NCBI GenBank assembly: GCA_020137815.1
Contig: CM035357.1
Location: 1,364,001-1,428,000, forward strand
DNA from: Hormiphora californensis
Taxonomy: Eukaryota; Animalia; Ctenophora
DNA length: 64,000 bases
Direction: 5' to 3'
The notes under the pieces are model-generated. The model saw only the letters and a program-made list of their open reading frames with translations. It had not been told where the DNA came from and ran no database searches. Made by a program: the position numbers and the translations under genes. Positions within the stretch are counted from its first letter, which is position 1. Each line of letters starts with the position of its first letter. Below, in pieces: positions 1,148-59,726 of this stretch.

Positions 1148-3648
1148 ATGCAAGATGTGGGTGATGTTGTAACGGGTGAAGAGTCAGGCAATGAACAAGG
1201 AAGACCGGAATCTGAAAGCGAGGTTGACAGCGGAGTAGAGTACGTGTGGAGTGAAGAGGCGGAAGATGCAGGGGAAGATTCCTTTAACTTAGGTTTGCAC
1301 TGGAATCTTTTTTAATTACTTTTTGGTCAGATGTGAACATGATATTTCTGTGTTTCCCTTCCAAATTGTTTTATTTTTCTGAACCTAATAATACCTCTCC
1401 CTAGTTTACACACCACCGACGGACCTTCCAAGCACTGTAACCCGATTAGAAGGACCTGGTGAGAGCGAAGTTTACATCGTGGGGACGGCACATTTTTCTG
1501 AAGAAAGCAACCAGGATGTTATCACAACCATTGAAAAATGTCGACCTCACATTGTTTGCTTGGAGCTGTGCAAGAACAGGGTATGTTGTTGTTGTTCGTA
1601 CTGTAAAATAATGAAAGTCCCTGAAATTCTGCTACACAATTCCACTACACCCCTAGTTACACAAGTCCACCCCTAGTTACACAATTCCACCCCTAGTTAC
1701 ACAATTCCACCCCTAGTTACACAATTCCACCCCTAGTTACACAATTCTACCACTAGCCTCCCCTAGTTACACGATTCCACCCCTAGTTACATAACACCCC
1801 TAGTTACACAATTCCACCCCTAATTACACAATTCCACCCCAAGTTACACAATTCCACCCCTAGTTACATAATTCCACCCCTAGTTACACAATTCCACCCC
1901 TAGTTACACGTGGTCAAGTTTACCGAGGAGGAGGTATTGGATGAGGTTCAAAATATCGGGCTGAGTAAAGCGAAGGAGCTTCTAGATCGATCTGGTGTTT
2001 ATTATGGACTCTTCCAACTTGCCTTTCTCTACCTTAGTGCTGGACTCACCAAACAGTTGGGCATGGCACCTGGAGGAGAATTCAGGTGGGTGTGTGAAGT
2101 GTGAGTGTGAAGTGAGAGTGTGTGAACTGTGAGTGTGTAAACTGTTTGTGAAGTGTGAAGTGTGTGTGAACTGTGAGTGTGAACTGTCACAGTTCACACA
2201 TAGTTTAACTGTGTGTGAATGATAAAGCTTAGTTTGAAAAATGATATATTGTCTATTGCAGGGATTTATTAATTGTATCCTGCTTGTCCCCTCACTTATC
2301 CTCTGTTTTATTTCAGGGCAGCCTACCGGAAAGGACGAGAGATGGGTTGTTCCTTTAGGTTGGTTGACCGGTCAATTCAGATCACCCTCCGTCGTGCTAT
2401 CATGTCACTTACACTTTGGAAACAGATAACTTTGGGAATGAGACTGGTTAGTTTTGTACTCTAGTTTGCAGCAGTTTATCCTTGCATTAGTATGCAGGCT
2501 AGGGTTCGTTGCTTATCGGTTAAACCAGTAATTTAATTTTAGTACCTGTGTTTCTCTCCCTATCCACGTTATCCCCCTCCCACGCCCAGATTTGTTTCTT
2601 GCCGCTAATTGTTCATTTTTCTCCCCCTCCCACGCCCAGTCCCACTTCTGGTTCTCCATCACTGTATCTCCCCCCACGCCTGTATCTCTCCTCTCCCACC
2701 CAGCCCCCATGGTTCTGAACCCTCACACCCCTCCCGCTCCCAGATTTTCAGTAACGAAAAGATTAGCAAGGAAGAAGTTGAGAGTTTCAAAGGGGATGTG
2801 CTGCAACGACTAATCGAGGAGATAGCCGGGGAGTATCCCAATTTGTCACGAGTCTTCGTGGATGAACGCGACAAATACCTTGCTAGAAAGATTTATGAAT
2901 CTGCAGAGGTGAGGAAAATTTCTGGCTACTGTAAAAATTAGCACCTTTGGAAGAGTGTGTAGTCGAGTGGAGGGGAGAGAAAATAGTGTAGTTGAATGGA
3001 GTCAAAAGTTGTCTCAAGTCTCTTTTTTCTACCTCTGTGTGTGAACACCTGTGTTAATTCTGAGTGTGTTAATTCTGTTGTTCAGTAGCTTCATTGGCTC
3101 CTCAAATCGCGTATTCTCTGTAATCTGTGACTCTGTTTTCCTAATCCACAAATATAAGCAGCTCATGTAACAATTTACTAATAAAAGTTTAATTTCACAG
3201 GAGATCGAGTTAGAAGAAGGTGAGAAGGTTCGAGTGGTAGCTGTGGTCGGTATTGGGCACATCTCTGGGATTAAGAAGTACTGGGCAGAGGATGTAGACA
3301 TGGAGAGTATTTGTGTGATACCAGAACAGAGTAGAAATAGTTGGATTATGGTGAAGGCAATTAAGGTAATTAATTATTGTAATTAACTAATTATTTAATG
3401 ACAGTTCATGTTACTTTAGGGGGGGGGGGTATTAGAAACGAACTGCGTGATTGATATGATTTGTCACCCATTTGACAAGTATCTCTCTAACCACTTCATT
3501 TTCAGTACACTCTTCTCACTGGTTTATTCTATACAGCCTACAGAGCTACCATCTTTTCCTGGAGCCTCGTCTCGCCCTACTGTCCTGAATGGATGTCCCC
3601 TACCCGGGTTATACAACAAGGGGCTAGTTATCTGTGGACTGGGAATTA
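1148..3648 (+). CDS. TRABD: TraB domain-containing protein, 7 exons (1148-1292, 1405-1580, 1904-2085, 2317-2446, ~2743-2908, 3201-3365, 3506-3648)
   Basis: Spliced GT-AG reading gives VYIVGTAHFSEES..RPHIVCLELCKNR, LGMAPGGEFR, LVDRSIQITLRR, VFVDERDKYL and VVAVVGIGHISGI, all hallmark TraB motifs. Hydrophobic C-terminal segment; phases are consistent. Confidence 0.92.
1636..1909 (+). repeat. 20-bp minisatellite TTACACAATTCCACCCCTAG (~13 copies) filling most of TRABD intron 2
   Basis: Direct tandem copies visible; the last copy supplies the acceptor CCCCTAG|TTACACGTG at 1903/1904. Confidence 0.95.
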
Positions 3649-4379
3649 GGGATATTTTTAGGGGAAATAATTGTGTGTGTTGAGGGACTGTGTTTCTGTG
3701 TGCTGGCACTGGTAGTGTGAGGTATTTTATGTTCTAACAAGGTGAGGTATTGTATCAGTATAAGAGTTGAAATGTCACGGTGTGTATTTATTTAGTGTCA
3801 GTTCAATCTATCCATATATGGTCATTTAGAATCTTTATTATTAATTTTGGGCTGGCCGCTGAAATCTAACCAGTTATTCAGAACTATAGAAAGCATAGTT
3901 TTTCAAGAGCGGCTGTGCCAATGAATACTGTGTAATGGTTTTGTCTTAAACATTTCGAATATTTGAATTATCTGTAAATTTGTTCGTTTTCTTGTTATAA
4001 ACTGACGGGATCAGACATCAGTAGTAATATAGAAGGACGAAGGTCTTCGTGTCATTTCTAGATCATTGTGTGCCCCTGCTTTACGAATCGGTCACACTTT
4101 TCATCAAGAGAGAGCTGCGCGCGACCACCAAATGGTTCAGATGTGGACAAACACGCGCGCGGTAGCATGTTGAGAAAGAGAGGCCAGGTCTTCAGTAATT
4201 AATTGACACACTCCCCCCGGAGATAATTGGATGTGTGTATACTTCATGTAGTACACGATGTACGTATGGGAAAGTTGACCAAATTACCGGATACGGTTCG
4301 GACGTGCTGACAAATTAACATCGAACGGAACTTCTGTGACACTGGCAATGACACATGGCATGGAGTGGTACCGGATAGT

Positions 4380-6047: not shown

Positions 6048-34804
<28,757 letters not shown>

Positions 34805-35899
34805 CTAGAGAGAGAGTTTGTTACTTTAACTAGGGAGAGAGAGGGGAGAGTTTGTTACTTTAACTAGGGAGAGAGTAGATGTGGAAGGGGCAACATGGTT
34901 GAAGATTTGGGTTCATTGACGTCTAGAGATAGAGGAAGCAACGTGTTAAATGGTGAAATGGGAATCAAGTTTTGTTGCTACACCAAACAATAATTGTACA
35001 AACAATACAGGATTTTAATTGATTTAGTTCAGTGGTATTCTACCTACAGCATACATTGAGGCATTACTGAGCTGCAGCAAGGAATTTAAGGGCGGGGATG
35101 CTGGATCAAGTTACAAAAAGGGGGGAATTTCCTCCAAGGAACAACACAATGTGAGGGTGGAATGTGAAGTAAAAACTGAAATTGAAAAGTGAGATTGAAA
35201 AGTCAAAAGTTTGATTCGCAAGGCCCAAGGGGCAGTAGGTATGGAAGTAGGTATGGAAGGGGCAGTAGGTATGGCAGTAGGCAGTAGGTATGGAAGTCTT
35301 TAGTAGGGCGGATGCAAAATGTTTAGTTTTGGCACACGCTCGAACACACACACGGGTAATAAGGTTAAAGTGTTACGGTGAAAGAATTCGTCCGAGTAAT
35401 AGACGGGGAAGAAAGAATGTAAATGTATGAATATAATGACATGTACAAACATGCCAGATATGTTTGATCTATCAACACAACAAGTGGGATATAATACTGC
35501 AGATTTGATCTACTGCAAAAGGTATCTATCTGCTATCAGCAACGGAATATTCTTCAGAATCGTTCTGTAGCTCAGAGAGCTGTATTATACAAGAGCGAGT
35601 TTAAATAATATCAGATCTAGGTTGGGTAACTTAATTGCTGCACGCGTGTCTGGGTGTGGGAGGAAGACATGATGATGTAATACGTTTCATCGAAAATGAT
35701 CAATTATCGCTTACGTCACAATAACGCGTTGCTTTACTATTTTACATAGTTGGGGACATGGACAATGTGGCGCCTCGTACAGGAAATTACAACTGAGGGC
35801 AACAAAAGTAGAAAGAATTATACTAGAACATTATAGAAGTTTAGTAGAACTGGGGCGATCCTTCAAGAACATTATAGAAATGTAAATGGTGTCACTTCA

Positions 35900-37241
35900 C
35901 ACGGCGTGCCTGGTGAAATTTTAACACGACCTAGCATGCGACGGGAAACCACCACTTGTACGTGGTAGCTGAGGGTCTACAGAATGGCGCTACGGTACGG
36001 GAAAAAACATTCCATTCCCTAAAATCGTTTTTTTCACTTTTATTTGATTTGGGTCAAAATTGGCTATATCAAATGTGGTCCCGAAAAATCCATAATAACT
36101 TAGCACACGAAATAAGTCATCCCTACCTATTTTTGCACGTAGAATCGATTGCCGTTGAAGTCGAATCTCTAAAATGACTGTAAAATGGTCAAAAGTTGAT
36201 TTTTTACCATTTTTTGGAGGTTTTTGGCCCCTAAACCATTGAAAACGTTGAGATAGGAATTTGAAACTAGTGCCAATCGTTAAAATGGTCATTTTTCTAC
36301 CAAGAACCAAGTTTTCGTGTATATCCGATTTATGGTTAGATTTGGGCAAATTGTTGAAATCTGCCAACTAGGAGAACCGTAACTTGATTTTCTTGTTTTT
36401 TGGATTTTGGCATTTTTGACAAACTTCTGATTGAAATGGCCAGTCGGGACCATGCTTAAGTTGTTTATGGGACAATTTTCGACTAAAATCCAAGATTTCA
36501 TACCAATCCAATAACAGATCGTTGATTTATAGAAAATTTGCGTAGGCAAAACGGTCAAAATAAGCAAGAAAAGTTGTTATTTTGACCGTTTTGCCTACGC
36601 AAATTTTCTATAAATCAACGATCTGTTATTGGATTGGTATGAAATCTTGGATTTTAGTCGAAAATTGTCCCATAAACAACTTAAGCATGGTCCCGACTGG
36701 CCATTTCAATCAGAAGTTTTTCAAAAATGCCAAAATCCAAAAAACAAGAAAATCAAGTTACGGTTCTCCTAGTTGGCAGATTTCAACAATTTGCCCAAAT
36801 CTAACCATAAATCGGATATACACGAAAACTTGGTTCTTGGTAGAAAAATGACCATTTTAACGATTGGCACTAGTTTCAAATTCCTATCTCAACGTTTTCA
36901 ATGGTTTAGGGGCCAAAAACCTCCAAAAAATGGTAAAAAATCAACTTTTGACCATTTTACAGTCATTTTAGAGATTCGACTTCAACGGCAATCGATTCTA
37001 CGTGCAAAAATAGGTAGGGGTGACTTATTTCGTGTGCTAAGTCATTATGGATTTTTCGGGACCACATTTGATATAGCCAATTTTGACCCAAATCAAATAA
37101 AAGTGAAAAAAAACGATTTTAGGGAATGGAATGTTTTTTCCCGCACCGTAGCGCCATTCTGTAGACCCTCAGCTACCACGTACAAGTGGTGGTTTCCCGT
37201 CGCATGCTAGGTCGTGTTAAAATTTCACCAGGCACGCCGTG
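35900..37241. mobile_element. 1342-bp near-perfect palindromic (foldback) Chapaev-like non-autonomous transposon
   Basis: Arms 35900-36563 and 36577-37241 around a 13-nt spacer; CACGG..CCGTG termini; 4-bp TSD TTCA (35896-35899, 37242-37245). Confidence 0.85.
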
Positions 37242-39236: not shown

Positions 39237-42200
39237 TTACAATACAACATGTGCAAAAATCACTGCGAAAATCAAACTCATGGACCAAGTCATCCTAACT
39301 CCATGCCCCGCTGCAGTTAGTTTAGCTTCCAACAGCTTCCTGGAGCACCCATCCGTCTTACAAGTTTCAATATAACATGCTTTAATGAAAGAATTCTTAG
39401 TGCATTCTGCGTCTTCAGTAGATCCGTCCAGACAGCCCAACCTGTAGAGACCAACACCAAGAAGATCCCACTCTGCAAGATAACAGTTCTTACATGTCGG
39501 GAATTCTTCAGCGCACGTCTGGAAGCCGAATATATCGGGTGAATATATACAACTCTCGCATTTGCTCTCTTTAGGGAGATGAAGTGGTGAGGGACAATAA
39601 CTGCTCTCACATTCAGTCTCACATCCGGTACCATTACAAGTCAGCGAGCAGGTGTCGACAGTTACACACTTTGCCATACAACCTGCACCCGTGCATATTG
39701 CAGTACAGTTTACAGATTCTTCGCAGAAGGCGATACATCCATCACCAATGCACTCTGCCTTGGAAGTCGACACCAACCCGGTAGAATTACTATAGTTATA
39801 GACTTTAGCAGAGTGGGCGGTGCACTTTTTACCTGTACACTTGGCTCTATTGTATGTTCCCTCCTGGACACTTGCGTAACAGTTATCCCCCGTACACTCT
39901 ATTTTAGAAGAGTAGGCACCAAACAGTGTTATGTTCGCCCAGTCGTTTTCCCCACTGGTGACCACATCGCTGCTAGTACCATATTTCAGATAAATCACTG
40001 CTCCTTTAGCACCCTTGGAGAGCGTCACACTAGTACTGCTGAGATAGTCAAGGAATGCTGTGTTGTTATTTCCCTTTATATTTATCACCGAGTTTCTCGT
40101 TAAAGCACAGATTTCTTTCGCACTTTCGTCGCACTTTCCAATTGTTTTACATTGGCAGGCCCCCACATCCTCTGTATCTGAGACCTCCAAATAACACCAA
40201 TCACCCTCACAATTCAGTTCATCATAACTGCCATTCAGGTAGGTGAATGTACAATATCCGCCCTTACAGGTATACTCATTATAGTAACTCTCCCCAATGT
40301 TCCCCATGGTACAACCATTTGCCTCATCAGCACCATCACCAGTATTATCGCAGGACAATATGAACTGATTATTCTGGGATTTCGAATCCTCCTCAAGCTT
40401 GTCATCAATTACCATCTTGGATTTCTTTCCCGTCACACTGATAGATCCGTAGGAGTTAGCCGTTAAAGTGGCGGATGAAGATGTTCCTACCACAGTCACC
40501 TCTAAGGTGTAACCCTTCTCCGAAGTAAAAGCACACCCCTTTTCTGTCTCCGAGCACAGAATCTGCACACTCCGACTGTTATCTGCGTTGTAAGCACACG
40601 CCGTAGAATTTTTGGCCGTTTCATAAAACTCGCCCGTACAGGTTTTATCACCAGTCGTCAGGCAAATCCTTTTGATGCACAGGCCCTGTGAGGAGGAGCC
40701 AATGACTTCTAATGTAGCAATATCAGAAACAATATTTCCACCTCCAAACGATTGACTTTCCGCATAGCTGATATTCACAAAATAATACCCGCCATACTCA
40801 GCTTTACTGGAGCTTGAGATATTGTACAGCGCGGTATAGTTTTGGTTGGCTAGTGTTAGTAGCTTGGTAGTATGAGCAGGTACAGCATTCTTGAAGACAT
40901 CCTCTTCAGTTATTGTATCAGATAAATCAGTCAACCACCGGTACCATTGGATGGTCCCAACTGCATCGGCTGCCATTATGGTGGCACTCAGTGTCCCTCC
41001 CAATCCTTCCACAAGGGTCGTGTTGGGTAGCTGTTCTGTGTAACTAAACTCCACCGCAGTGGCTGTTACTGTTGTTGTCCCTACATTGTCAATGGTTACC
41101 TGACACGAGAAATCAACTTTGGTGGCGTTGACATCGTCTGCAGGGATTGTGAAGTAGATTAGTGTCAGTTTGTTGACCGTAGTTCCCTTCTTTATGGATA
41201 GTCCTGCATCTGCCACATTTGCTGTGGTATAGGACTCCCCGCCCCATCCGAAAATTATTTTATCCTCCGGGATGTTATCCTCAGTGTTGTATACATTGCA
41301 TTGGACTTTAAGGTCGGACCCGGTTACCATGAGGGGTTGAGTGATATTGACGATGGAAACTCTGATATACGCATACATAGGGAGGAGATATTCGTTATCG
41401 TCTCTATCTGTAAACTCCCACGTGCATGTCCATTTAGTATCAAAAGCAGGGACACCTTTCAGGGTAAGTGTGAAGTAAGGTCGACCACTGTCCGGGTAAC
41501 TACCATCATACTTCACCTCCAAGGTAGAGTCTGTCTCATTGTCAATTGTCACAAACTGACTCCCAACTGCTATTTTAGCATTACTAGGGTATTTTCTTTG
41601 GCGTGTACCCAGGTGGAATCATGAAGAACGACTTCACATTAGTTGTAGCGCCAGGCAGAACCTTTTTATAGCTTGTAGACATGTAGAAATCGCGTTTTCC
41701 CTGACCTGACTTTGGTGTTCCACGAGCTCCCTTCTTCCCTCATAATCCACACTGTCCCCCAACTGTCCGAAGATAAATCCTCACAGGTTCCGCCATCGAT
41801 CTTCCTGGACTTCATATCGTCAGTACTAATCTGCCAATCTAGTGTTGTGATGTTGTTGGCAATGATTACCAGTTTCTTGTCATTGAGGAACAGCATCCAT
41901 TCTATTTCTTTATCGTCGGGCACGTTTATCATGTTCGGAGTTCCGACGCCATCCCCGCCCGTGCATCCCCATATTGTCACTGCATAGTCGGTACTGGGGA
42001 GGGTAAACGTGTTACTTTATACTTGTATAATTTTACTGGGGAGGGAGGAGGGTAAACATGTAAAGATTGGTAAAGAGTCAAGAGATAATATTGAAGGAGT
42101 TATGGAGATGATGAGGTATATATTACTTACGTCCACGAGATTCTGAGTTTAGCAGGAGTGTTTGCTCCGCTAGGTGGACTTTCGAACGCTTGAAACCAGA

Positions 42201-42946
42201 GAGAATGCTCGTTGTTAATCGTCTACAGAGTTATTAGGAATAATAGAGACTTTCTGCTACAATAAGGGTGTATACATGTACAGTCGGACCCCGATTTACC
42301 GGGATGCTCGGGGGAAAGGGTTTTACCCGGTAAATCGGGGTCCGACTAGATATTAGAAGTGATAGAGACTTTTAAATGCGGCACTGAAGCCGGTAACTTT
42401 TAGCTGAAATCGTTTCATAAACTGATACCAGATACACTCGGAGCAGGAACCGACCGAAACAAATAAACAACCAATCAGAACTCGTTATTTAGGTCACGTG
42501 ACTGGTTATCAGCCAATCAGGGACCAGTATTTCCTGATTCGGTCGGTTCATGACTCGGAGCCCGGTTTACTACCGTGTATACGAGGATCTTGTTGTACAA
42601 GTTAGCTCCCGTTTGAGCTCGCTGCCAGCCACTATACAGCTCCTTGTTATCCGCATCAATAATAGTGATACTATCAGATATATTGGAAAATTCCAATGTT
42701 GCCGGATCCAAATTTACAGCAGGATACGCTGAAACGAAATTCGTTTTTTGTGCCTTTTTTGTGGAAATATAAGAATCAATGTTATCTATGTTTACTCTTG
42801 CCTAGCTCGACCCTCTTTTCGCGAGCTCCGCCATCCCTTTACAAATGTAAAGGAGGGTTAAAACAAGTTTACTCACTAGTAAGGGTTTCACCAGCTACTA
42901 AACCCATTTGAGTAGCAAGTAGAGCAGAGAGAAGAAACGACAACAT
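39237..42946 (-). CDS. Large secreted, probably GPI-anchored protein: signal peptide, Ig-like domains, Cys-rich repeats, C-terminal LU/three-finger-like domain
   Basis: Exons 42877-42946 (MLSFLLSALLATQMGLVAG), ~42574-42728, ~42130-42222, 41994-~41706, then the 771-aa ORF. Ig-like IQWYRW..YGGYYFVNI; C-x-G-x2-C repeats; ends CKTDGCS plus a hydrophobic tail. The 41584-41705 junction is unresolved. Confidence 0.8.
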
Positions 42947-43557: not shown

Positions 43558-43742
43558 CCCCTAACAAGGCTGCAATAGTACCAACCGCTCTCACCAACCA
43601 ACCAAGTGTGTTATCCGTGACCCCTAACAAGGCTGCAATAGTACCAACCGCTCTCACCAACCAACCAAGTGTTATCCGTGACCCCTAACAAGGCTACAAT
43701 AGTATCAACCGCTCTCACCAACCAACCAAGTGTTATCCGTGG
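43558..43742. repeat. Three 61-63-bp tandem copies that include the GPCR stop codon
   Basis: CCCTAACAAGGCT..TGTTATCCGTG repeated; the minus strand reads CACGGATAA in each copy. Confidence 0.9.
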
Positions 43743-46700
43743 CCATTGTGCTTGTGGTACAGTGAGATGCTGCGTTGCCGCTGTTTGTGTTTGAAGCGGG
43801 GAGAAAAGCTGGGGACGGATTTTGTAGCGATGAGGTTGTTAGTAGACTCAGGGGCGGTGTCACTGATTAGAGAGTGCTTACTAGGCTCACTTTGATCTAG
43901 ACCTCCACCGTTCCTATCTGAAACATGTCGTGTGGATAATGGTCTAGGTAATGTAGGGATTTTGTAAATGCACAGTCGTGCTCATGTCGTGGATAATGGC
44001 ACAGGCTGAACAGTGATGATGTGCCGGCCAAAGTGCTCGACAGTAGGAGCTTGAACTAACCTAGTTTCAATTAGATAATGACCCAGTGATATTGTTGGGA
44101 TTTCGGAAAAGTTTAAAGAAGATGGTTTATTTTACCCTTTGATTTGACGGAGGATGCTTTGTGATGATTTCCACCGCCACCGGGAGTCGGTAAGGGTTGG
44201 GAAAGAGATCCTTGAAGGGAGATGGCGCCATCATTTTCATCATCTCCACACTTTGATCCCCACCTCTGAGACAAGAAAGAGTGAGAGAAACGCGCTAGCT
44301 AAAGACGACTGACATAGTTCAGCCGCAAGCTCCTGATTTTTGATTGAATTTCAGTATGTACATACTACCAACACATGACTGGCTGAAAAAGGTTCTACCT
44401 GGGACTAGATAAATCCACTCACCCTGTAAGACTTCCGGACGAAAAAGAACATTGCTTGAAAGAGTCCTCGGTGGGTTTTACGTTTGTCTGTGTGAAGAAG
44501 AGTCTGTCCATACAGAAATGGGTTGGCAGCAGCGCTGATAAATAGGAATCCACCCAGACTGAGGTTGTGCCAGTACATCCTGTGTGGGAAATTAACCTTT
44601 TTTTTTAAATTCACTAATTAACACACTTGTTGTTGACCAGCAGATATTTTCTAATCCCTGTCTCAGACTCAAATATCAATATATCATATAATGCATGAAG
44701 GAGGAAAATTAAAAAATATCTGGCCGGGGTCGAACCGACTGCCCATATAAATGTTATATGATACGTTTTCCTCAATAGACTCTATCAAGACATATTTTCT
44801 GTCACTACTTGTTACTTACCCTCCAAAGGGATCCTTGTTACCCTACTTACCCTCCAAAGCAGCCACCCAGGGTAAGGTTGTGGTGAAGGGTCCACGCTGG
44901 TCCCTGGGTACCACTCATGTCTTGGAAGAACTCGAGAACTCCATCAATATACCATGGAGTGTAGAAGATAATGAAACATAGAAGGAGCTTTATGGTCATC
45001 ATTAGTGAGTCACGCTCTCTGGCTGGCCTGTTTGGGTGATTGGAGGGGGTCGAAGGAATTATATCATTACACGTATCATTGCAGACCTCTTACACCCGAT
45101 AGGGCTCACACCCGATAGGGCCCTCAGGGGGCAGGGGTAACGTATTCCAAGTAATATTCTAACCTGTATTGATTGTTTCGGTGACTGACTTGCTTGGTCC
45201 GGTATAGTCGGAAGAGGAATGATGAGAGATAGACAAGGGAGAGAAGGGTAACTGCACCAGGTAGCAAGAAGGGAACAAGGATCTGGCCCGCTACGGAGAG
45301 TGATTTGTTGGTCTTGTTCCTCAGAACAACCTGCGGGTAGTAGTTGGTGTTGTAAACAACCAATCAGAACTCGTTATTTAGGTCACGTGACTGGTTATCA
45401 GCCAATCAGGGACCAGCATTTCCTGATTCGGTCGGTTCCTGGCTGTGGCACGGATAGTTGGTGTATAATGGGAGTAGTCACTGTGTGGTAATACTTATCG
45501 GAGACTAAATGCAGAATGATCGCAGACTGAAATGAGGTAATAATATTCTAGATGGGAGAGAGAGAGGAGAGAGAGGAAGGGAGAGAAAATGAGATGGCAG
45601 AATGAAAATAATTCTTGGGTCTAAAATCAGACTGTACATTGCCAGTATGGCCTAATCTTTGATCTTTGAAATTCTTGGATTTCACTTCATGAAATGAAAT
45701 GGAACAAGATTTAATCCTGATCAGATCTCATTCACTCTAGGAAATAAAATAGAATTTCACAGAATACCCACTGATTTGTTGGTTCCTGATTTCTACACCC
45801 ACCACACAAAGACCAGCACTGCGGCTGCAGTACTCAGCATGGAAATACTGGTCCCTGATTGGCTGATAACCAGTCACGTGACCTAAATAACGAGTTCTGA
45901 TTGGTTGTTTACTCGGTTCCTGCACAGAACACTCACCACACAGAGACCAGCACTGCGGCTGTACTCAGCATTGGATATTTTCCCGTCGTAAGAGTAGACT
46001 GAGGATACTAGTACAAGAATCCAAGCCAGACAAGTAGCAGCTATCGTCCGCGGTATTGAGCAAATCTGAATTGGATGTAGGGTTGGTATACGCTACAGGC
46101 CCCTTATGCGGGGGTGTGCACATGAGGGGGCTGCAGTGCATTCCAGGATGTAGGGAGGGATATCGGTCAAAAGTTCATGGAGGGGAAATATACATTTATG
46201 AGCTCGCTTGTGGCTATTTCGAAAAGGTAGTCAATTACACTTCGATCCTAATCTCACAAAGATTTATAAAAAAGTAAAGTGAACTTACCCTTCCAACCCT
46301 TAGAGGTGCAAAGACGCATATAACCCGGAAGAGGGCGATGAATGTCACGAAGATGATTGAGATACGGGCACAGCAGCTATGTAGAAACACCACTACCACT
46401 GAAAGTAATAATGATAGCTACTGGAATTACACAAATTAAATTGCACTAGTAAATGTAAATCGCGATATATCTAATAATTGTGGACAGTTGTTTCTTTTAT
46501 TTTCCTATCCTTGGCTTTAAAACTTAACTCTCCCTTATGTTTGGCCTAACTTAACTAACCTGTGATGGTGCTACCGGGCGAACCAAGTATATCCCTTCCA
46601 TTTAGAAGACCATGTATGGTAGCCCACACTGGTATCGTCAGGATGATAATATCACCCGCTGCCAAGTTGCTCACTAGGGTAAAGAAACTCGCTTTCGACT

Positions 46701-46929
46701 GGTTTGTTCTGTATCTCAGCGTACTAAACATCTGGTAGAACAGGTATCCATTCTCTGAGATACCCATTATTGACAAACACAGATAGAGAATTCCAAGACT
46801 GGTATCAAATGACCTGACCCAGGGTTTCTCCAGACACTCTGTGACTAGTTTCGTGTAGTTGGCTCCTTGTTCTGGCATTATGAAGGGTTTAGCTGCAACC
46901 GTTACAAGTTGAGTCGGGTCCACATCCAT
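43733..46929 (-). CDS. Rhodopsin-like (class A) GPCR, ~8 exons
   Basis: TM1 GISENG; TM2 NLAAGD; TM3 FIALFRVICVFAPL (46290-46399); TM4 AWILVL; TM5 LVPFLLPG; TM6 CFIIFYTPW (44850-45030); TM7 SAAANPFLY (44421-44579). Tail exons end at TAA 43733. Confidence 0.85.
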
Positions 46930-47970
46930 TATATTGAACTTGGATGGATTCCTATATACTGGAACAACTTGGATGGATGGATTCCAATTCTCTATACTGC
47001 GACAAGTTACATAATGGAACTATATGGGATGTGGTTCACTGTTACACTCACAAGAAAGGGCAGAAAGTTGGCATGTGCTGCAGTCCTTTGGTGACGCAGT
47101 CACCCTTACAACTCGCGCGCGTAGCACGCGAAAACGAAGCCCGCGAAGCAGAGAGGTGATGGCATCACCAATGCAGTCCTCTAGCGTGTAAGTTTGTGGC
47201 GGCTACAAGAGGGGACTGCAGCGTTTGCCAAAGTTAAAGAAACAGTGTTAAATCTAAAGGGGTTCACGCCCATGGCAACCGCTCAAATAAACACAACAAT
47301 TCAGACAAATAAAGGCAGACTAAAGAATTATATTATCTCTCTTTTATTATTATTATCTCCCTCCTATGTAAAGTTAGAGGCAGTGTGTAATTATCCAGGC
47401 TCTACTGACATATGTTTCTATTGTCAAGGGACGGGCTGGCTACAAATTAAGGGGCCATTACGGGGGCAAAGTTGTATTGTAACAACAAAACTATAACAAT
47501 GTCAGTAGCAAGGTTAGCTCCACAAACAAACCAAAGGACCACAAATTAAGTATCCTAAGTAATTCCTAACTATTAGTTTATGACGTGTCAAAAGTGATCT
47601 AAGAAGGAATCTCCTCCTCTGGTATAGGCTGCTTACTACTTATATGTTTTACTAAAGTCAGATTTTTAAGTAGTCACCAGTTAGTGTAGTCACCCCTCCC
47701 CTTCTTGTGCACTCGTTTTTTGGTGAGCTTGTCAAAAGTTGATAAATGTCACATGCGTGTGAAAAAGGGGGTGACTAAATCCTACTCTACTACTACTAGT
47801 ATCGGCTGCCTGTGCTGCACTATTACAAAATGAAGAGGTGGTGTGGGAGAGAATTAAACCACGTGATGCACCTGATCATCTTTCTCCCACTCTTTCCCTC
47901 CTGCTCATTCTCTCCATCTTACTAATGCTTTTCTCTTTCTCCATTTCTTTCTCTCTTTCCTTCCCCGCCG

Positions 47971-48065
<95 letters not shown>

Positions 48066-49695: not shown

Positions 49696-52600
49696 ATGGT
49701 GTACACTAGGAAGACCAAGTTATCACGGTTACCCGCTGAACACATTTACAAGTTAACCCAGAGTTTAACCGTTGCACCTGATACACGAGGATGGAGGCCG
49801 CTAATTGCTTTTCTCAACTTAAACATGGGTACGTTGCCTTCTTGGTAAACCTTCCTTACTCTACCCTCTAGCTTCTACAAAAAGCTTCTAAAAATGAGAT
49901 GGGTTAGAACAATTCCCATTTGAAATTATTTGTGTTGTGAATGTCAGAACAAACTCTGGCAAATGCGAGAACTGCTGCAGCAGCTCCCAGCTGCAAACCC
50001 TCGGGTTAGAACATAACAAAAGTCAGCATTTCTCTAACACTCCTCTTATTCAGCGGAGGCGAGGATGTGTGAGGTAGGAGGCGGGGCAGAAGCAGTGATT
50101 GATTTGATACTTCAGCGAGGTTGGAATGTAGGGAAGCTAATGGATACCTTGAAGAAAATAGGAAATGAAGCCGCTGCAGCTGATATTGCTTGTGTTGTTA
50201 GTATTGAGCCAGATGCAAAACCGAGTAAGTTTTGAAGTGATGCAACCTTGATCAGATCATTGTGATTTGTTACTTTTGTGGGGAATATAATATCCTCAGT
50301 CACACTTGAATAATAATATTAATCTCCTCTCAGTCACAATTGAATAATAATATTAATCTCTTCAGTCACACTAGAATAATAATAATAATCTTCTCAGTCC
50401 TGATAGCGGGTCAGCTAGAATTACAGAGTGGGGAAACGTTACAACTCCAAGTCAATGCCCCTGCCTCCTACACAGACCTGCAGTGGTATCATGGAAAGGA
50501 ATGTTTACCAGCGGAGAAATCACGGGACCTCTCCATACCTAATGTATGTGTGTGTAATTCGCAGAGACGTGTACATCCGGAAATAAAATGTCTTTCGATG
50601 CGAATTTTAATGTTTTTCTTTCTCTTTCCAGGTTTCAGAAGCTGATATAGGTCGCTATAGTGTCCGATTGGAATCGGGCTCTGGTGTTGTCAAATGGGTG
50701 CACTGCGAAGTTAGCATCAGAAATATAGGTCAGTTTTAGTTTTATCTCTCGCTCTATGACTCATGCCCGCAAAGTGAGATCACATAGCTTCTGGGCAGAG
50801 CGCGCGCGCGGAGCACCGAATGTCTTGTGGGTATAGTGTCAGCATCGGAACGTGCGCGAGCATGCGCGGTCACAACAATAAACTGGCAATGGTACCACAA
50901 ATAAACAACAGATTTGGTCTAATTTGAAAAACAATGACCACAATTGATTAGATAAGATTAAATTCACTCCCCTTCGCTCTGTTTCAATTATTGTTTCATC
51001 AACAGTTTTACAGAGCAAACAAATTGTAGAAATAAGAAACTTCAACCGGCGTTGATGATAAAACTGATGTGCTGTAGAGAGACAACGTGTTTACTTTCAT
51101 GGTATTGTACTTCAATCGTCCCCATCCGAATCTCCATTAATAGAAGAACTAGACAGCAGCGGTTTCATCTCAATGTCTCCCTTAACCGTCTCTCCGGAAC
51201 TTCGTTTAACAGTCATTACAGCCACACAACAAATCCGCCCCAAACTAAACATGAACAGCAGGAACAAACCTACAAATATCACTATGTACAACAAATTGAC
51301 TCCTTCCCCTGCTATGTAGGAGTCAGAATCAGAGTGGTGGTCCTCGATAGGATTATCATGATGTAGGCAGTTCTCATCGTTACAGATGTGACTGTTACTG
51401 CACTCTGTTAGGACTTGTTCAATAGTGACCTGGGAGTGTGCTTGGTTACAACGAATGTAGAATTGAGAATTCATTGCTTCATGATCCTGCTATCAAATGT
51501 TCAAACCGGGGCGCGGTGAGAGAGGTTCGAGCAAGGCTAGCTCGATCCTCCCTCCTAAACAAACGTACTACTCCTGTCAGGGCATCGTCACGACAGTGCT
51601 AATCAGTACTTACCCCATTCATATGTTCCTCTAGTAACTCCTGGATGTAAAACCCGATGACCTGACAGAAGAACCTTGTCATCTTGTAAGCAGCAAAACA
51701 TTCACTATAGTGAAAATGTAGGCTGATATCAAACATATCACCAGTTTGAGTTTCAAACGTTGTAGCATTAAAGAGGCCAGAAAAGCTTATGCAGGATTCC
51801 GATTCATCCGTTGTGTCGTTAGAGGCTTTGCACGTCTTGATGTCAGATGAGCGGCATAATTCTGCGGGGAAATGAATACTGTTTAGGCTATTAATCAGAC
51901 TGTTTGAGCTGTTATGATCGGTAGATAGCCAGAGAAATTCATGTAAGAAACCAAAGTGAAGTGTGATCTACTGAGTACTGACCATAGTTATCAAATAACT
52001 GTCCTCCCTGCGACAGTGATTCTTCAGCCACAACCCCGTTAGTAAACTGCAGGCATCCATCATAGCACTGAATAGCTTCAGTCACGGGCAGGATGAAGGT
52101 GCTAACTATGAAACACAAGACAAGTGGCATAACTACTGAAATCTGAAAATGATGTCCTAACAAATCATACTGAAAGAATTGTATTTTTCGTGCTCCTTCA
52201 TAAAACTTTTCTACTCTCTGGGAAAACAATAATTAGGGGTCTTTTTCACTAAACTGGCTGTCTTTGATTGACTTATTGTCCGTATTTCACTCTGTTTTTC
52301 ATCATCGTCTACCCCTCATTGCCCAGAGGCGGTCGAAGTTGCTGTTGTAGAGTTGTTGTAGAAGACTCTGGAAATGTGTTTCCTTGGTGAAATTGCTCCC
52401 ACCACAAACTTCCTGAAGCTCTTCAGTGTTGCCATGTAGATGAGCGGGTTGAGGCTGTTGTTCAGGAACTTGACAAACGCTCCGTACCTGTACAAATATA
52501 ATCTGTTACACACAATGGGGTAAGTGGTATCAATTCCTAAATTGGTGGTGTTTTGCTATACTTGCGACAGTGATATTGAGCACACAGTTACCTGCTGAGA

Positions 52601-55600
52601 TAAAGGAAGATATCTTCGTCACCATCTTTTAATGAACTGTCCACCACCCAATACACACCTGTAGGAATAAACCAAATAAGTACACATTGGAATGTATAGA
52701 ATGGAATGTATAAAACATATAACGGAATGTATAAAGTGAAATGTATTTGAAATAATGATCATGGCTTGAATTGCTGTTTACCAAGAACCGACCGAAACAA
52801 GTAAACAACCAATCAGAACTCGTTATTTAGATCACGTGATTGGTTATCAGCCAATCAGGGACCAGTATTTCCTGATTCGGTTGGTTCCTGCGGTTTACCT
52901 ATGGGAGCGTATGAAATGATGTACACCAAAGAAACGGGAATGAGTGTGAACATGGCCTGTTTATTTTCCCCAGTAACTTTCTTCACATAGCAAAGGAGGG
53001 CTGCTGTGGTTATCAGTACAATAACATTGGGTCCTAGTAGGAAGATACCCATCAGAGTGGGTCCCAGCCACTCCCAGATACCATCCGAGGAACTGTAGTT
53101 GCACCTGTATAGAGGTAGTGAGGTCAATTCAGTGGGCGGCTGTGGGCCTCACAACTGTAGTGGGTAGTGAGGTTAACTCAGTGTGCGACTGTGGGCTTCA
53201 CAACTGTAGAGGTATAGTCGAGGTCAACACTCAGTCTGTGTCTCTATACAGTATACACACAACAGTAGTGGGTGGAACATACTGGATCGGTACAGAACAT
53301 ACTCACACATGACACAGACACACACGACACAGACACAGACACAGACACACACACTGCAGACAGTAGACACACACATAAAACTTATACCTGTAGATTCTCC
53401 AATCAAACCGTGACGGTCTCCCTATTCCTATCAGTGGGTAAAGGTGGGCAAGTGCCACAGCGATGGCACTGAAAACCAGCCCATGCTTTTTGGTCCTGGA
53501 CCGGGCAGCAAATGGTCGCATCAGGACGGCCAACTTGTTGATATTCAGGGCACAAATCAGCAGAATATCAGTCAAGCAGAAGGCATATTGGATGTAGGTG
53601 GAAACCTCGCAAAGCCACGATACTCCCTGATACTGCCAACCATTGATAGTGACGGATATTGCCACTTGAAGGATGACGAACACCCCATAAACCATATCTG
53701 CAATCGCTATCCCCTCTACTAACGTTTTAGTCACCTGAAACAGCATTCAGTTGGACCCCGATTTACTGGGGTGCTCAGGGAAAAGATTAAATAGGAAACC
53801 GGTAAATCGGGGCCCGACTGTACCATTGTATTACAACCAGTGTCAACCACACAACTAGAAAGCCCCTAGATACAGTTCATCAGCTATACATATATATACC
53901 AGAAATCCCTTTATAAGCAAAGATATATAGAACTCTGAATATTTTACTCGACACTCACCTCCCCACTGCACTAACCTCCCCACTGCACTCACCTCATCTA
54001 GTTTTATTGCGTGGTATTTTAGTGAGGCAACCAGTACTACCGCATTTCCTGGAAATATTTCACAATTATATTAGAGGTTTCTTGAAAATCAAAGGACCGA
54101 CGGTAAACATAAGCTAATTGACTATCAATTAGCTTACGTGTTCCGTCAATGACAGAAGCTTTCGAGAACACTGTCTTTCACGTCTTCACTCTTCAGCTTT
54201 TGACTAACCTAGTACAGCTAGCAGCCCTGTCCCATAGCAAACCTACCTAGTACAGCTAGCAAGCCTGTCCCATAGCACCACGCTGCAAATGCCCCTCGGA
54301 CAGCAGGTGATTCAAATTCGTAATAAGATTGGTTCCAAGGGGGTACGAACATGATTCTAAAATCTAATTTGTGTTGTTGAGTAAGTGAGTGGGACTCAAC
54401 AAAATTTGTGGGCATTCCATCTCCTGGAGGGGAAATCCACACAATTTATACTTCTGGAGGTTAGGTGAAACTTTAGCTTTAGTAAAGCAAAAGGTTGGAA
54501 CAGCGGGCCAAATAATTTGGAAATTAGATGTTTAGTAGTAAACAAACAAGCACTAAGGTGATTTAATTATTTGCGTTTTTGGCGCTGTCACCAGAATACT
54601 TTACTGTGAAATATTGGACTAACTAACCACCAGGAACCGACCGGACCAAGTAAACAACCAATCAGAACTCGTTATTTAGGTCACGTGACTAGTTATCAGC
54701 CAATCAGGGACCAGTATTTCCTGATTCGGTCGGTTCCTGCTAACCACTAACTTCACTCACCCACCTTCCTTGTTTCAGGAACAGAAACGAGACTATGTGT
54801 TTTAACAAAACTTCCTATTTTTCAGTCGAGACACTACGATTTGTGCTGCAGCCCCAAGACTGTACCATCAATGAATCCACCACAACCGCTCATTTCTTTG
54901 TGGACGTCAGACCCCTCACAGCCTCCCTTCAGTGGTACTGCGATGGGGTCCTAATGCACGGGCAGACTGAACCCTACCTGGCCGTGCAGAATCTGAACAG
55001 GAGTGCACACAGGTATACATACAGAACATGGTCTTAGTTATTTCTTCTGAGTTCTACATGTGATAGAGTTCTGGAGAATAGGAGTCCAAATCTAACAGTT
55101 TCGAAATTAAAATACGCTGATATCAGGCCTGAAATATTTCTCTCATTCTAATACCATCTACCAGGAACCGACCGAATCAGTAAATACTGGTCCCTGATTG
55201 GCTGATAACCAGTCACGTGACCTAAATAACGAGTTCTGATTGGTTGTTTACTTGTTTCGGTCGGTTCCTACCATCTATACCTCTCCCAACGTACCAGGCG
55301 ACAGTACAGCTGTGTGGCTCGTCTAGAGGGAGAAAACATTGAAACCCAGAAAGCGCTAATCAGATGGTCAGCCACTCCAGGACCAAACTTTACGGAAAGT
55401 GGTGGTAACATTGAATCAGCTACTGACAAGGTTGCCCTGGTGATTGGAAATCAGAGTTATCATGAACCAACTTTTGGTGATATTGTACACGCTGAGGATG
55501 ATGCGAGGGATATTAGTGATTGTCTCCGGGCCCTCAATTTCAAGGTAGGACTAGGAAGTACAAACAAACAAACAAACAAACAAACAAACAAACAAAAGGT

Positions 55601-58600
55601 AGCACTTTTGTAGCTCATATTATTATAGAAGTAGTAGTACTTGTGTAGTTCATATTGCACAGCTTGTGCGCTCCGTGAGGGTTCGATAGAGCAATGTAGG
55701 ACTAGGACGTACAAACAAACGAATAGGAGTAAACAGCTGCATTGTGGTAACTCACTCAACTCACATAACACATTATGAGTCATTTGAGTCATTTCCCACA
55801 CTGTGGTGTTATGTGAGTTTCTCAAGCGAAACATACACATCTAGCACCACATACATCAGCGAGTTTGAAAAATGAAAAACTCCTAAAAAAGGTAGATTAA
55901 CTAATTAAGCCTGGCAATACAACAAGACATTAGTAATATTCGAGTTACTATCTGATTACAGGTAGTGTCACTGATAAATCTGAGCCGTATTGAAATGTTG
56001 GCGGCATTTGATTCTTTCTACAAGTTACTAAGTGGCGGGGTCTATGGTGTCCTCTACTTTGCAGGTCAGTGTGGGCTGTGAACTACACATTTCTAAAAAC
56101 TTGTACAAGTAAACTGGAAGTGAATGTGAAAGTGCCAACTTGTAATTCTATCGGTGAGAGATATTGAATGTGCACGTTTACAATTTGATAAGGTGTAGGA
56201 TAACTAGACAACTAGTATGACATTTAGTAGAATCAGTTCAAGACAACCAACACTGATACTGTGTTGCCAATTGCCATTGGGCATTGCAACTACTGAATCA
56301 GCAATGACTGCTTGGTATTTATAGGTCGGACATAAATCGAAAGCCGATAGAATAATAGATTGTTTATCCCCATTCCAGTCTACTCACCAACCTAGTTAGT
56401 ACTAAGCACAATCTGGCGTCGGCTCGATTCTTGAAGAAACACTGTTGCTCACGTGATCAGGGGATCTGTGAAACGCCTTTATCAATACCACGTGTGTTTA
56501 AGATACTCAATGATGGCTTTGTGCCTTTATAACACAGATAACTAGTGCTCTGATAGCTTTGTAACAGTCCGACTAGACAGGATTCTTGTCGCTCGTTACA
56601 AAGCTAGCTTCTTGTCACAAGAAGAGGAAAGTAAATGGAGTTTTCCTGTTACGTTCATCACAATTCTCCCAGGTACAACTCAGCCCGCCACGCAGGCTTC
56701 ATTTTGGTGCGCTACGCGCGCCAGTTGTAAGGGTGACTGCGTCACCAATCCCAGGTCATGCTCTCCAACAATTCCTCCTCCCAGGTCACGGGTTTGAGAG
56801 TGGAGGTGTCAACTACCTGGTACCGGTGGATGCTCCTGCAGTGGTCAGTGTCACAGACTGCCTCCGAGCACAACATCTCCTCTACCGAATGCAGTTTAGA
56901 GGAACTAAACTGAACCTCCTTCTACTGGATATGTGTAGGGAGTTCCCTGGGGGTCAGGTTTCATGTGATATCAGACCCGTTCCAACTGTTAGTAATGGTG
57001 CCATCGGTTTCGCATGGTAAGATGAAACAATTTAAAGCCACAACCAATGCAATACTCCCGAACGGCCTATCTGACAGCATAAGTCAATGAACTAGTGCTA
57101 GCCTCCAAGCTTTTGACTGATCCACATCAACTCAAATTTCAAGTCAGATACTAAATCTCATCCTAGCTGATCCACATCATGTTTCCCCTGCAGTGGTCCA
57201 GGTTCCAGAGCATACGGAAGTGAGAGTGACAGGAATGGAATTTATGTGAAATATTTGAAGGAGCATATCAAATCGAACATCACTGTTACGAAACTATTGG
57301 ACACTGTCAACAGAGGTACTACACCTTGTATTGTGTATGTATTCACCCCTTATTTCTTCTTATTTCTTATTTGAACTGTTCGTACTGTCTCCATGCTCCC
57401 TGTGAGTTTTGTTGTATTTTTATTTTCGCCAAACAGTGAGTCAACCACATCTTTTTGTGAGAGATTCGTCCCTACTATTTGGTTAAAATCGGGACAAATA
57501 GTTCAACTATGTATTTCTAAAATATTACTTTCTCTCTAAATCACTATTTCTAAAACCACCACTTTCCCTCTCCAGAGATAGGGCTGAACGAGCCGACTGT
57601 CAGACAGCAGCCCCACTACCAAAGTTCAATAATAGCTGATATCTCACTGGCTGATAGAGTTGATACAACAGGTCATACTGTGGAGTTTCACCACCGATCT
57701 CTCCTGTGGGCTATGGCTAATTGTGAGTAAAAGTGTGTGATCAGTAATTTCCACCGATCATGATTTTAATACTTGTGATGACCACTTTCGTGGGTGATCT
57801 GTCCACGGCCCACCCACGGGTTGTTGAGTTCCCACGAGACCATTGGAATTCATTGTTCACGAACACTAACCCCATGATTATAATAATAGTAACCATAGTA
57901 ACGAATTATAGTAACCCTATGATTATTTCCTAGCACTGGACAGGACAACCGATGAACTGAAACTTCAAAAAGCGGTCCTCTCCGTTACATATACTGCACC
58001 ATTCAGTAATGTTCTGATATGTAAAGTAGACCCCGCACCCAATACCATTATACTTGACCATGTGAGTATAATATAACCACCACCACCACCACCACCACCA
58101 CCACCACCACCACCACCACCACCACCACCACCACCACCCCCCACCCACCACCCCACCCAATACTATTATACTTGACCATGTGAGTATAATAACCACCACC
58201 ACCACCACCACCACCACCACCACCACCACCACCACCACCACCACCACCACCACCACCACCCCCCACCCACCACCCCACCCAATACCATTATACTTGACCA
58301 TGTGAGTATAATAACCACCCCACCCAGCTGTCAGGCCAATGCTCTGACCACTGTTATTTGAGAGAAATGAGAATATTAGGGTCAGGCCAATGCTCTGACA
58401 GCCCCCCACCCCCGATTATATGGGAACAGTATTGTTTAGTCCGGTAGCCCAATAATCATGCGTGATAACTTGGATCATCATGATGATGCATCGCATGACC
58501 ATTCTCAGTTCTATAAGACACGATAAACATTAACACTTATCAACTTTCACAGGATAGTGATATATCGGGTTTGGAGTTGGAACAACTGTCTCCCTCTGAG

Positions 58601-59726
58601 TACGAAATCAGACATATACAGAGGATGGAACAACCGTTTATTGAACTGACCATCATTTACGGGTGAGTGGTGACAAACATGCCTTGCCTTGTTCGACCCT
58701 GTCTCTCCGCGACCTGCGGACCTCATTTACGGGTGAGTGGTGTGGTGACAAACATGCCTTGCCTTGCCTTGTTCGACCCTGTCTCTCCGCGACCTGCGGA
58801 CCTCATTTACGGGTGAGTGGTGTGGTGACAAACATGCCTTGCCTTGCCTTGTTCGACCCTGTCTCTCCGCGACCTGCGGACCTCATTTACGGGTGAGTGG
58901 TGTGGTGACAAACATGCCTTGCCTTGCCTTGTTCGACCCTGTCTCTCACCGGGACCTGCAAATGTCAAAGAGGGTGAGTGGTGTGGTGTGGTTAGGTAGA
59001 TCAAGTGCAGTAGGTGTATAGTCTGATTTTAAATAATTGTCGTTTACGACAGTTGTTTAAAATCCGACTATAGTGGTGAAAAGCTCCTTGTCAGAGAATA
59101 TATATTTGATCACAAACGATACAACTTTTTCCATCGGGCATCGTGTACAGTGTACACTGTACATTGTGTACATTGTACATTGTACACTCACATTTTACCG
59201 TTTCAATAATTGATATGATATCCCTCTCCCTAGATGTGATAGTGGCTCAGTGAGGATTGATCGGCCCCTATTCGCCAAGATTACAGCCAATAGAGCTGCC
59301 TTTGACATGAACCTAAATCTAAGTGGTGGTGGTGGTGGTGGTGGTTCCTCAAGAGCTACTTGTGAGGCTGGACCACCCCACCTGGCAACACGGGCATGCC
59401 CGCCAGGTTTAAACGGACCTGAATCTGGTTTAAACGGACCTGAATCTGGTTGTCATGGACCAGAGTCTGGTTGTCATGGACCAGAATCTGGTTGTCATGG
59501 GGATCCTGAGAAACAAAAGAAGGGAGAGAAGGAAACAGACCACAAACCCGTGATAGGAAAAGAGAATTTAGGTCAGAATGGATCATCAAAAACTCAGGAG
59601 TTGATGTTTGATGAGGTGTCAAGGTTACCAGACTTCCCAACAAATCACAGCACGGATATAGTCTACCCTTTTGTTGGCGTTTATCTTTTCTCACGTCGAG
59701 GTAAATACCTTACTCTCGTTTTTTAA
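49696..59726 (+). CDS. MALT1: Type-1 paracaspase (MALT1-like): death domain, Ig, Ig, caspase-like, Ig-like; 13 exons
   Basis: Exons 49696-49828, 50054-50224 (DD: LSRLPAEHIYKLTQSLTVAPDTRGWRPL..WNVGKLMDTLKKIGNEAAA), 50398-50543, 50632-50728 (Ig1), 54826-55012, 55298-55544 (Ig2, ATDKVALVIGNQSY), 55962-56064, 56785-57016 (YFAG|HG and LLLLDMCR catalytic dyad), 57194-57315, 57576-57722, 57934-58061 (FSNVL), 58553-58662, 59234-59726. All phases are compatible; the 3' end is uncertain. Confidence 0.9.
51112..52130 (-). CDS. Single-pass membrane protein with an LU/three-finger-like Cys ectodomain, nested in MALT1 intron 4 (exons ~51981-52130, ~51614-51861, 51112-~51486)
   Basis: Signal peptide MPLVLCFIVSTFILPVTEA, then IQCYDGC..ECSNSHICN, TM LLYIVIFVGLFLLFMFSLG, juxtamembrane CC and a short tail with EMKPLL. 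Confidence 0.78.
52316..54415 (-). CDS. Rhodopsin-like GPCR nested in MALT1 intron 4, 6 exons; start at 54415 or 54352
   Basis: TM1 LLAVLG|NAVVL; TM2 IAIADMVYG; TM3 CALNINKLAVLMRPF; TM5 FLLGPN; TM6 YIISYAP; TM7 NNSLNPLIY followed by helix 8 SFRKFV. Confidence 0.9.
58036..58320 (+). repeat. Three ~120-bp copies of the MALT1 exon-11 end plus donor, each followed by (ACC)n
   Basis: CCAATACCATTATACTTGACCAT|GTGAGTATAATAACC at ~58039, 58156 and 58279. Confidence 0.92.
58651..58985 (+). repeat. 80-bp minisatellite (~4 copies) carrying the MALT1 exon-12 donor
   Basis: TCATTTACGG|GTGAGTGGTG at ~58653, 58723, 58803 and 58883. Confidence 0.93.

Follow-up and report, generated by a model that had tools for sequence, protein, structure and literature searches.

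Genes of the window and repeats at their splice sites

The window analyzed here is a stretch of 64,000 nt from Hormiphora californensis (GCA_020137815.1, CM035357.1, positions 1,364,001-1,428,000, forward strand), in which splice sites of five genes lie within local direct repeats that copy the edge of the exon into the intron. The genes encode a TraB-domain protein, a TTC41-like NACHT/TPR protein, a seven-transmembrane-type receptor (GPCR1), a rhodopsin-family receptor (GPCR2) and a MALT1-like paracaspase (Table 1). All gene models required GT-AG ends and open frames. The junctions of the TTC41-like and MALT1-like genes were picked by ortholog alignment, except for three TTC41-like junction pairs that were placed by inspection of the frames; the models of TraB, GPCR2 and a predicted secreted-protein gene follow open frames, backed by Pfam or Atlas for TraB and GPCR2 only. 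A word-based search found no homologue of GPCR1 and an exhaustive search found one. A tentative GPCR1 exon of 45 nt (45482-45526) was discarded, as the ortholog has a gap of 15 residues at precisely this place. After exclusion of the TTC41-like exons between 24144 and 29645, which fall in a poorly polished stretch, the final set comprised 54 introns and 108 splice sites, with 40 of the introns in ortholog-aligned genes. The median internal exon is 138 nt long, and the GC content is 47% in exons vs 39% in the first 40 intron bases. Single-exon searches retrieved orthologs from Bolinopsis and Mnemiopsis at 63-75% identity and the gene model sb/3465405, presumably of Pleurobrachia bachei, at 91-100% identity in six core exons and at 75% in the final one. 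Judged from these ortholog matches, the DNA is that of a ctenophore (cydippid).

Each splice dinucleotide served as the anchor of a gapped repeat search at offsets of 12-400 nt in both directions, with low-complexity matches discarded and a threshold score of at least 14, while Tandem Repeats Finder (TRF) was used for array units and copy numbers. Eighteen of the 108 splice sites (about one in six) lie within a local direct repeat, comprising 10 acceptors and 8 donors, so that both boundary types are affected, and in all 18 the best copy is on the intron side. The number of extra copies per site ranges from one to about a dozen. The units are 17-150 bp long and different at each junction, with no motif common to the loci. 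Among 110 sites, 90 score 10 or less, 2 score 12, and 18 score 14-62; the repeats themselves are not due to chance. (Counts based on 110 sites still include the two sites of the rejected GPCR1 exon, both repeat-negative; the event counts given below use the corrected models.) In 17 of 18 units less than half of the bases are exonic (mean exon share 0.27; random placement gives one half; P 1.4e-4), which means either that the breaks fall near the junction or that exon-rich copies have been purged.

These results largely bear out the original prediction, made from the letters of the window, which had listed 19 loci in the five genes as tandem duplications anchored on splice junctions. All 19 hold an annotated splice site, and 18 of them reach the threshold (range 14-62; one of these, site 34805, was scored outside the intron list), while 56660-56790 scores only 10. 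The proposed copy numbers are roughly right, with TRF reporting 13.8 units of 20 bp at 1648-1909, 8.8 units of 38 bp plus diverged units at 15564-15977, 2.1 units of 39 bp at 11634-11713 and about 3.8 units of 80 bp at 58648-58988, and the 0-52 exon bases per unit are as had been stated. Our search added the TraB acceptor 2742, the secreted-protein acceptor 41994 (score 12), and the arrays 2086-2187 and 24146-24207, each of which adjoins a junction. At 1636-1909, where the junction was placed by the open frame and Pfam TraB matches, 12 copies bear AG and the copy at 1822 has AA. At 15564-15980 the inner units are near-identical and the distal ones diverged, in a qualitative comparison. The exon copy at 29753-30149 was also detected by tblastn. 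At donor 14914-14915 the second donor copy is the 8-bp target duplication of a miniature inverted-repeat transposable element (MITE) at 14799-14907.

Table 1. Genes, junction repeats and inverted-repeat elements, in window coordinates
Feature	Coordinates	Strand	Details
TraB-domain gene	1148..3595	+	7 exons modelled; Pfam TraB matches on exons
TTC41-like NACHT/TPR protein gene	11100..34804	-	exons 24144-29645 unreadable (poorly polished)
GPCR1, seven-transmembrane-type receptor gene	43733..46996	-	8 exons; checked against ortholog P0007
MALT1-like paracaspase gene	49696..59700	+	label from domain order; Pfam PF00656 on homologues
GPCR2, rhodopsin-family receptor gene	52316..54356	-	nested in MALT1-like intron 50729-54825
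TraB acceptor array	1636..1909	+	20-bp unit x~13.8 with 6 exon nt; AG of the real site 1902-1903; score 50
GT-rich array starting at TraB donor GT	2086..2187	+	13-15-bp units, 0 exon nt; counted as non-junction in statistics
TraB acceptor 2742-2743	2574..2747	+	diverged copies at 2588 and 2638; score 14
TTC41-like acceptor	11634..11713	-	39-bp unit x2, 18 exon nt
TTC41-like donor 14914-14915	14741..14931	-	exon-end copy at 14750
TTC41-like acceptor array	15564..15980	-	38-bp unit x~11, 9 exon nt
TTC41-like acceptor 19528-19529	19474..19807	-	~52 nt of exon copied at 19624-19680; near 19778 a third acceptor-like unit
TTC41-like acceptor array	20015..20337	-	41-46-bp units; AG in five extra copies
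Array abutting TTC41-like acceptor 24145	24146..24207	-	21-bp x3; intron incompletely annotated, excluded from statistics
TTC41-like acceptor 29795	29753..30149	-	x3, up to 42 exon nt; beyond these, degenerate units of intron only
TTC41-like acceptor 33709	33702..33789	-	one copy, 74 nt upstream; score 14
TTC41-like first coding exon acceptor 34805	34766..34934	-	copy with 39 exon nt including ATG; score 45; upstream intron unannotated, excluded from statistics
Predicted secreted-protein gene acceptor	41990..42060	-	acceptor copy; open-frame-only model; score 12, under threshold
GPCR1 donor 44849-44850	44813..44859	-	one copy 31 nt into intron
GPCR1 donor 45935-45936	45795..45963	-	exon-end copy behind partial MITE
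MALT1-like acceptor array	50284..50399	+	32-34-bp unit x~4, 2 exon nt
GPCR2 acceptor	53105..53234	-	~49-bp unit x2-3 ending at AG, 0 exon nt
GPCR2 donor	53952..53995	-	17-bp unit x2.6
GPCR2 donor	54207..54277	-	38-bp duplication, 31 exon nt
MALT1-like donor 55545	55541..55720	+	copy at 55696
MALT1-like acceptor 56783	56660..56790	+	score 10; three short CCCAGGT look-alikes, dispersed element between
MALT1-like donor 58062	58036..58324	+	x3, unit of ~120 bp enlarged by (ACC)n, 26 exon nt
MALT1-like donor 58663	58648..58990	+	70-80-bp unit, four extra GT copies
MITE	33501..33609	.	perfect 8-bp target duplication over donor; 7 nt into 3.8-kb intron
MITE copies similar to 33501..33609	14799-14907, 52782-52890		
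MITE	12156-12264		6 nt from donor, without clear duplication
Second small inverted-repeat family	11272-11374, 12425-12519, 21730-21908, 42278-42352, 53748-53823		

Contigs from four of the seven listed runs were compared with one part of the window only, 16850-21000. A 467-nt contig of run X2 covers 19414-19878 with no substitutions and spans the real acceptor together with its 52-nt exon copy (19474-19680); X2 is possibly the source sample, in which case this contig checks the consensus and not a second individual. A contig of run X6, from a second sample, joins 19530 to 19784 with 8 other letters and lacks 19531-19783, and with it the duplicate; the joint brings a unit similar to the acceptor-like one near 19778 up against the exon. 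Run X5, of the same sample as X6, has a contig over 19502-19635. The locus 19474-19807 thus reads as a heterozygous presence/absence difference, based on a single table row for which flank lengths are not displayed, and it is the one locus at which haplotypes apparently differ. No listed contig spans 20015-20337 within the compared part. Each of X2, X5 and X6 restores one base near 19455 and one near 19470, so the frameshift in the exon after acceptor 19528 is an assembly error caused by two single-base deletions. Such errors, together with the poorly polished stretch at ~25900-29100, where homopolymer noise garbles TTC41-like exons and a MITE copy, might raise the suspicion that the repeats are artefacts of long-read assembly, the more so as one duplication alone is shown to be spanned by a contig. 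This explanation is refuted for 19474-19680, which a short-read contig spans whole, and we consider it hardly credible in general, since the copies differ from each other by substitutions and carry MITE insertions.

Placement at exon edges relative to chance

The number of junction-spanning duplications was compared with random placement in an event test, in which arrays and transposons were collapsed and each unit was placed at random either in all modelled introns (pooled null) or in its host intron. Microsatellites with a period of 6 or less, repeats inside transposons, the MITE target duplication 16466 and events in incompletely annotated introns (24146, 29316, 29447, 34766) were dropped beforehand. 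The junction is spanned by 18 of 31 duplications, compared with 6.25 expected under the pooled null (P 8e-7) and 8.48 under the host-intron null (P 4e-5); for the ortholog-aligned genes alone the count is 13 of 23 against 4.4-5.8 expected. The excess persists when junction copies are given twofold odds of survival or detection (P 0.001-0.013). Per base, real sites are covered about twice as often as decoy GT/AG dinucleotides outside junction arrays (18/110 vs 222/2757, or 8%; P 0.004), and in introns shorter than 1 kb the corresponding counts are 16/102 and 67/1321.

A second kind of insertion favors the same places. The window holds 18 copies (5470-55270) of a 109-bp element with terminal inverted repeats, which are 92-100% alike, and of the 15 copies with both ends, 13 are flanked by 8-bp repeats that differ at 0-2 positions. 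Terminal inverted repeats combined with an 8-bp target duplication are the signature of hAT transposons, and by these features the element, which is very abundant, is classed as a hAT-like MITE. A donor is no more than 45 nt away from 9 of its 14 intronic copies, where 2.8 such copies would be expected (P 5e-5); the counts are 7 against 1.6 within 25 nt and 9 against 3.8 within 60 nt, and three target duplications cover the donor itself. As the copies are that similar and mostly retain their target duplications, they are young, which makes a retention bias less likely in their case. In each DNA run, thousands of contigs fall on the compared part of the window, which holds two MITE copies, with depth peaking at those copies. 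All 14 genic copies sit inside longer introns and none itself forms an intron, as an Introner would; the idea that the element is a published ctenophore Introner found no support in the literature search. A metagenome scan for the MITE returned two contigs, an insufficient number for testing. On an unrelated metagenome contig (L002, 1022-1115) a related MITE lies 12 nt past the stop codon of an uninterrupted frame for what we read as a papain-like protease.

Several observations weigh against a mutational preference for exon edges. Compared with all intronic GT/AG decoys, real sites show no per-base excess (18/110, or 16%, vs 471/3088, or 15%; P 0.79); we prefer the event test because the interiors of arrays inflate per-base cover. 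If junction copies are given threefold odds of retention or detection, the excess is largely explained (P 0.02-0.09). Unit lengths were set by hand, the MITE distance cut-offs were chosen after viewing the data, and the window, whose own genes make up the test, was selected for this very pattern. A second small inverted-repeat family has none of its 6 places within 90 nt of a donor, four of them being 13-55 nt from an acceptor. Finally, a 61-bp x3 array at 43558-43741 (- strand) is anchored not on a splice site but on the stop codon of GPCR1, its first unit running from the last codons into the 3' untranslated region; taken with the MITE past the stop codon on L002, it hints that a boundary of coding DNA may be what counts, be it a splice site or not.

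The lack of a per-base excess and the effect of threefold odds find their place in an explanation that dispenses with mutational bias altogether, according to which duplications arise at random, introns are short (collapsed median ~210 nt), exonic duplications are purged, and junction copies outlast others, one copy being under conservation and the splice site acting as a barrier to deletions, in a window picked for its density. Raised intronic indel rates reported for a related ctenophore in the passages available to us (PMC8527503) would fit as well. Against it stands the composition of the units: being only ~27% exonic, they should gain well under a twofold advantage from conservation, and the young, intact MITE copies are biased to the edge too. 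On balance we find it rather unlikely, though it is the rival to be taken most seriously. The enrichment at splice sites originally proposed thus holds, for this window, by event at 2-3 fold, and fails per base against all decoys. The proposed focus of mutation on exon edges draws modest support from the event excess, the low exon share and the MITE placement, but is not separated from biases of retention and ascertainment. Introns growing from their ends are likewise seen here, but junction arrays add only ~2.4 kb to 25.6 kb of intron, with a further 1.0 kb in other arrays.

Choice of the splice site among the copies

The idea that only the exon-proximal copy gives the homologous frame was confirmed, since 53 of 54 distal copies would be non-productive, 37 by frameshift and 16 by an in-frame stop; the sole copy that stays open (30 nt) is at the weak locus 56660-56790. 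Many but not all copies retain AG or GT. Acceptor strength was scored with a rough weight matrix built from the window's own sites, and 34 of the 43 AG-bearing acceptor copies reach at least the 5th percentile of real acceptors, with six copies at 15612-15840 tying with the real one. As the decoys score like real acceptors, sequence strength alone is insufficient to choose the site, and the choice must depend on position. The distal copies, many of them good sites by score, are likely ignored by the spliceosome, and silent good sites of this kind are known behavior, as in F7 IVS7 and the amphioxus mirages discussed below.

Decoys of such quality could also indicate that the arrays are functional, serving stepwise (recursive) splicing or regulated alternative site choice. 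Recursive splice sites are acceptors directly followed by a donor (AG|GT). That arrangement is found in only 3 of 43 acceptor copies, so the recursive removal entertained in the original prediction is unlikely on the evidence of the letters. Some pseudo-sites are used in the human 6-16 and CBS genes, according to the parts of that report available to us (PMC1557585). Distal use would here give a frameshift or stop in nearly every case, one duplication is apparently absent from another haplotype, and the lack of a common unit motif argues the same way; a functional role for the arrays is accordingly very improbable in our estimate. A possible RNA run, X7, yielded a single contig on 16850-21000, located on the MITE, and has no bearing on expression.

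Other features were recorded beside these genes. Open frames at 51115-51489 and 51602-52232 (- strand), inside the same MALT1-like intron that contains GPCR2, may represent a second nested gene. A second, diverged TTC41-like last coding exon is located at 8257-8358 (- strand), ~2.8 kb downstream of the first and with 44% identity to the ortholog; it is a possible alternative terminal exon. In the MALT1-like gene, a 21-bp in-frame coding repeat at 59406-59500 (+ strand) is longer than in the close relative P0005, which indicates that exonic duplications survive when in frame. The predicted secreted protein (39240-42946, - strand) has a 793-codon open frame with no Pfam match and a cysteine-rich second half, and its gene contains a frame break near 41620-41670. 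Between genes, a long, near-perfect inverted repeat seen by eye at 35993-37143, with arms of ~570 bp around 36570, is possibly a foldback element. A 456-bp satellite at 60881-64000 (6.8 copies, 99% identity) continues past the window end.

Relation to mirages and a proposed origin

The original prediction knew of no description of such arrays at this density; the repeat type has in fact been named 'mirage' in amphioxus (PMC3087553, PMC3902484). In the passages available to us, Ebner et al. describe minisatellite-like duplications of intron-exon boundaries at both intron ends, with haplotype length differences, normal splicing and a generating mechanism that they call unclear (PMC3087553). The affected genes are Adh3, the globins BflGb6 and BflGb9, troponin C and PGBD5, the last added in the paper of Pavelitz et al., which also cites troponin C (PMC3087553, PMC3902484). 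Somatic instability has been reported for the Adh3 mirage. The original paper on that array is said to be the one by Canestro from 2002. The arrays described here match amphioxus mirages, as far as the passages go, in their locus-specific tandem units over the exon-intron boundary at 5' or 3' ends (10-160 bp in amphioxus), in the many but not all copies that keep AG or GT, in the homogenized inner and diverged border units (judged qualitatively here, at 15564-15980), and in haplotypes with different copy numbers (here apparently so, at one locus). They differ in their ctenophore host and in having been counted against a null, with 18 of 108 sites affected in one window. Normal splicing was demonstrated by reverse-transcription PCR in amphioxus, while here the sign of it is an indirect one only, the proximal copy giving the ortholog frame; and the amphioxus passages report no co-located transposon, in contrast to the MITE found here.

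The closest human parallel is the 37-bp variable number of tandem repeats (VNTR) in F7 IVS7, on which Borensztajn et al. report first-come scanning, with four other human cases in 6-16, CBS IVS13, lamin B2 and PDGF intron 4, in the portion consulted (PMC1557585). There too the first unit spans the donor and alleles vary in copy number, and the identical downstream pseudo-donors are silent by 5'-3' scanning. Unlike these isolated, donor-side cases, more than half of the present arrays are at acceptors, where the last copy must be chosen, so that first-come scanning cannot be the rule. The MITE invites comparison with Introners and DNA transposons, for which linker-biased insertion is described in the sections seen (PMC9860276): it is likewise short and non-autonomous, and has terminal inverted repeats as well as target duplications that can copy a splice site, but it sits inside existing introns and makes none, and its linker targeting is suggested by position only. 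The Hormiphora genome paper describes numerous intronic indels as well as nested genes, while such arrays go unmentioned in the passages of it that we saw (PMC8527503). Our literature search, which did not extend to supplements and most subscription journals, found no ctenophore mirage report and no genome-wide count.

We favor the view that the arrays are mirage-type minisatellites, with extra copies on the intron side, that likely arise somewhat preferentially at exon edges and likely persist as splicing takes the copy next to the exon. Every junction concerned has a unit of its own. The first duplication would come about by slippage or break repair, and unequal exchange would then alter the copy number, in agreement with the locus at which contigs differ between haplotypes. 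By analogy with known cases, the choice would follow first-come 5'-3' scanning at donors and exon definition at acceptors, with any stray distal use ending in a frameshift or stop. Lastly, the 2-3 fold excess may reflect a greater exposure of the DNA immediately next to nucleosomes positioned on exons. This is the weakest step, and we put it forward with some doubt, although such exposure would also explain young MITE copies next to donors. The median internal exon length of 138 nt, the GC step from exons to the first 40 intron bases and the linker bias of DNA transposons (PMC9860276) speak for it. The arrays are best described as tolerated duplications with a modest bias to exon edges, one that exposure of the DNA probably drives. 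An origin coupled to transcription or splicing, through R-loops, spliceosome-tethered breaks or RNA-templated repair at splice sites, would also put breakpoints near the junction on the exon side, as 17 of 18 units have them, and would suit the three MITE target duplications over donors. In the copies, however, intron and exon follow each other as in the genome, unlike in spliced products, and one array is anchored on a stop codon, so that we regard such coupling as quite improbable.

While the structure itself was already known, this work extends mirages to a new phylum, the ctenophores, with a dense set in a single window. In practice, gene predictors are misled by such arrays, and assemblies from short reads collapse them. 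The array at 15564-15980, whose six decoys equal the real acceptor, is the mirror image of the F7 donor case and offers a natural substrate for studying how the last of several equal 3' splice sites is chosen. Since the origin of mirages has been called unclear, and two unrelated kinds of insertion favor the same few tens of bases, mutational bias at exon edges becomes a testable proposition. A broader version, in which linker DNA exposure makes exon edges a general hotspot and directs both duplications and transposons to the first tens of intron bases, is tentative and at present more doubtful than not. Were it true, introns would lengthen at their ends and splice sites would be replaced over time, in that upon collapse of an array a distal copy would take over as acceptor, as the joint between 19530 and 19784 suggests, and the missing mechanism for mirages across animals would be supplied. 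The edge bias common to the duplications and the transposon is the part most worth following.

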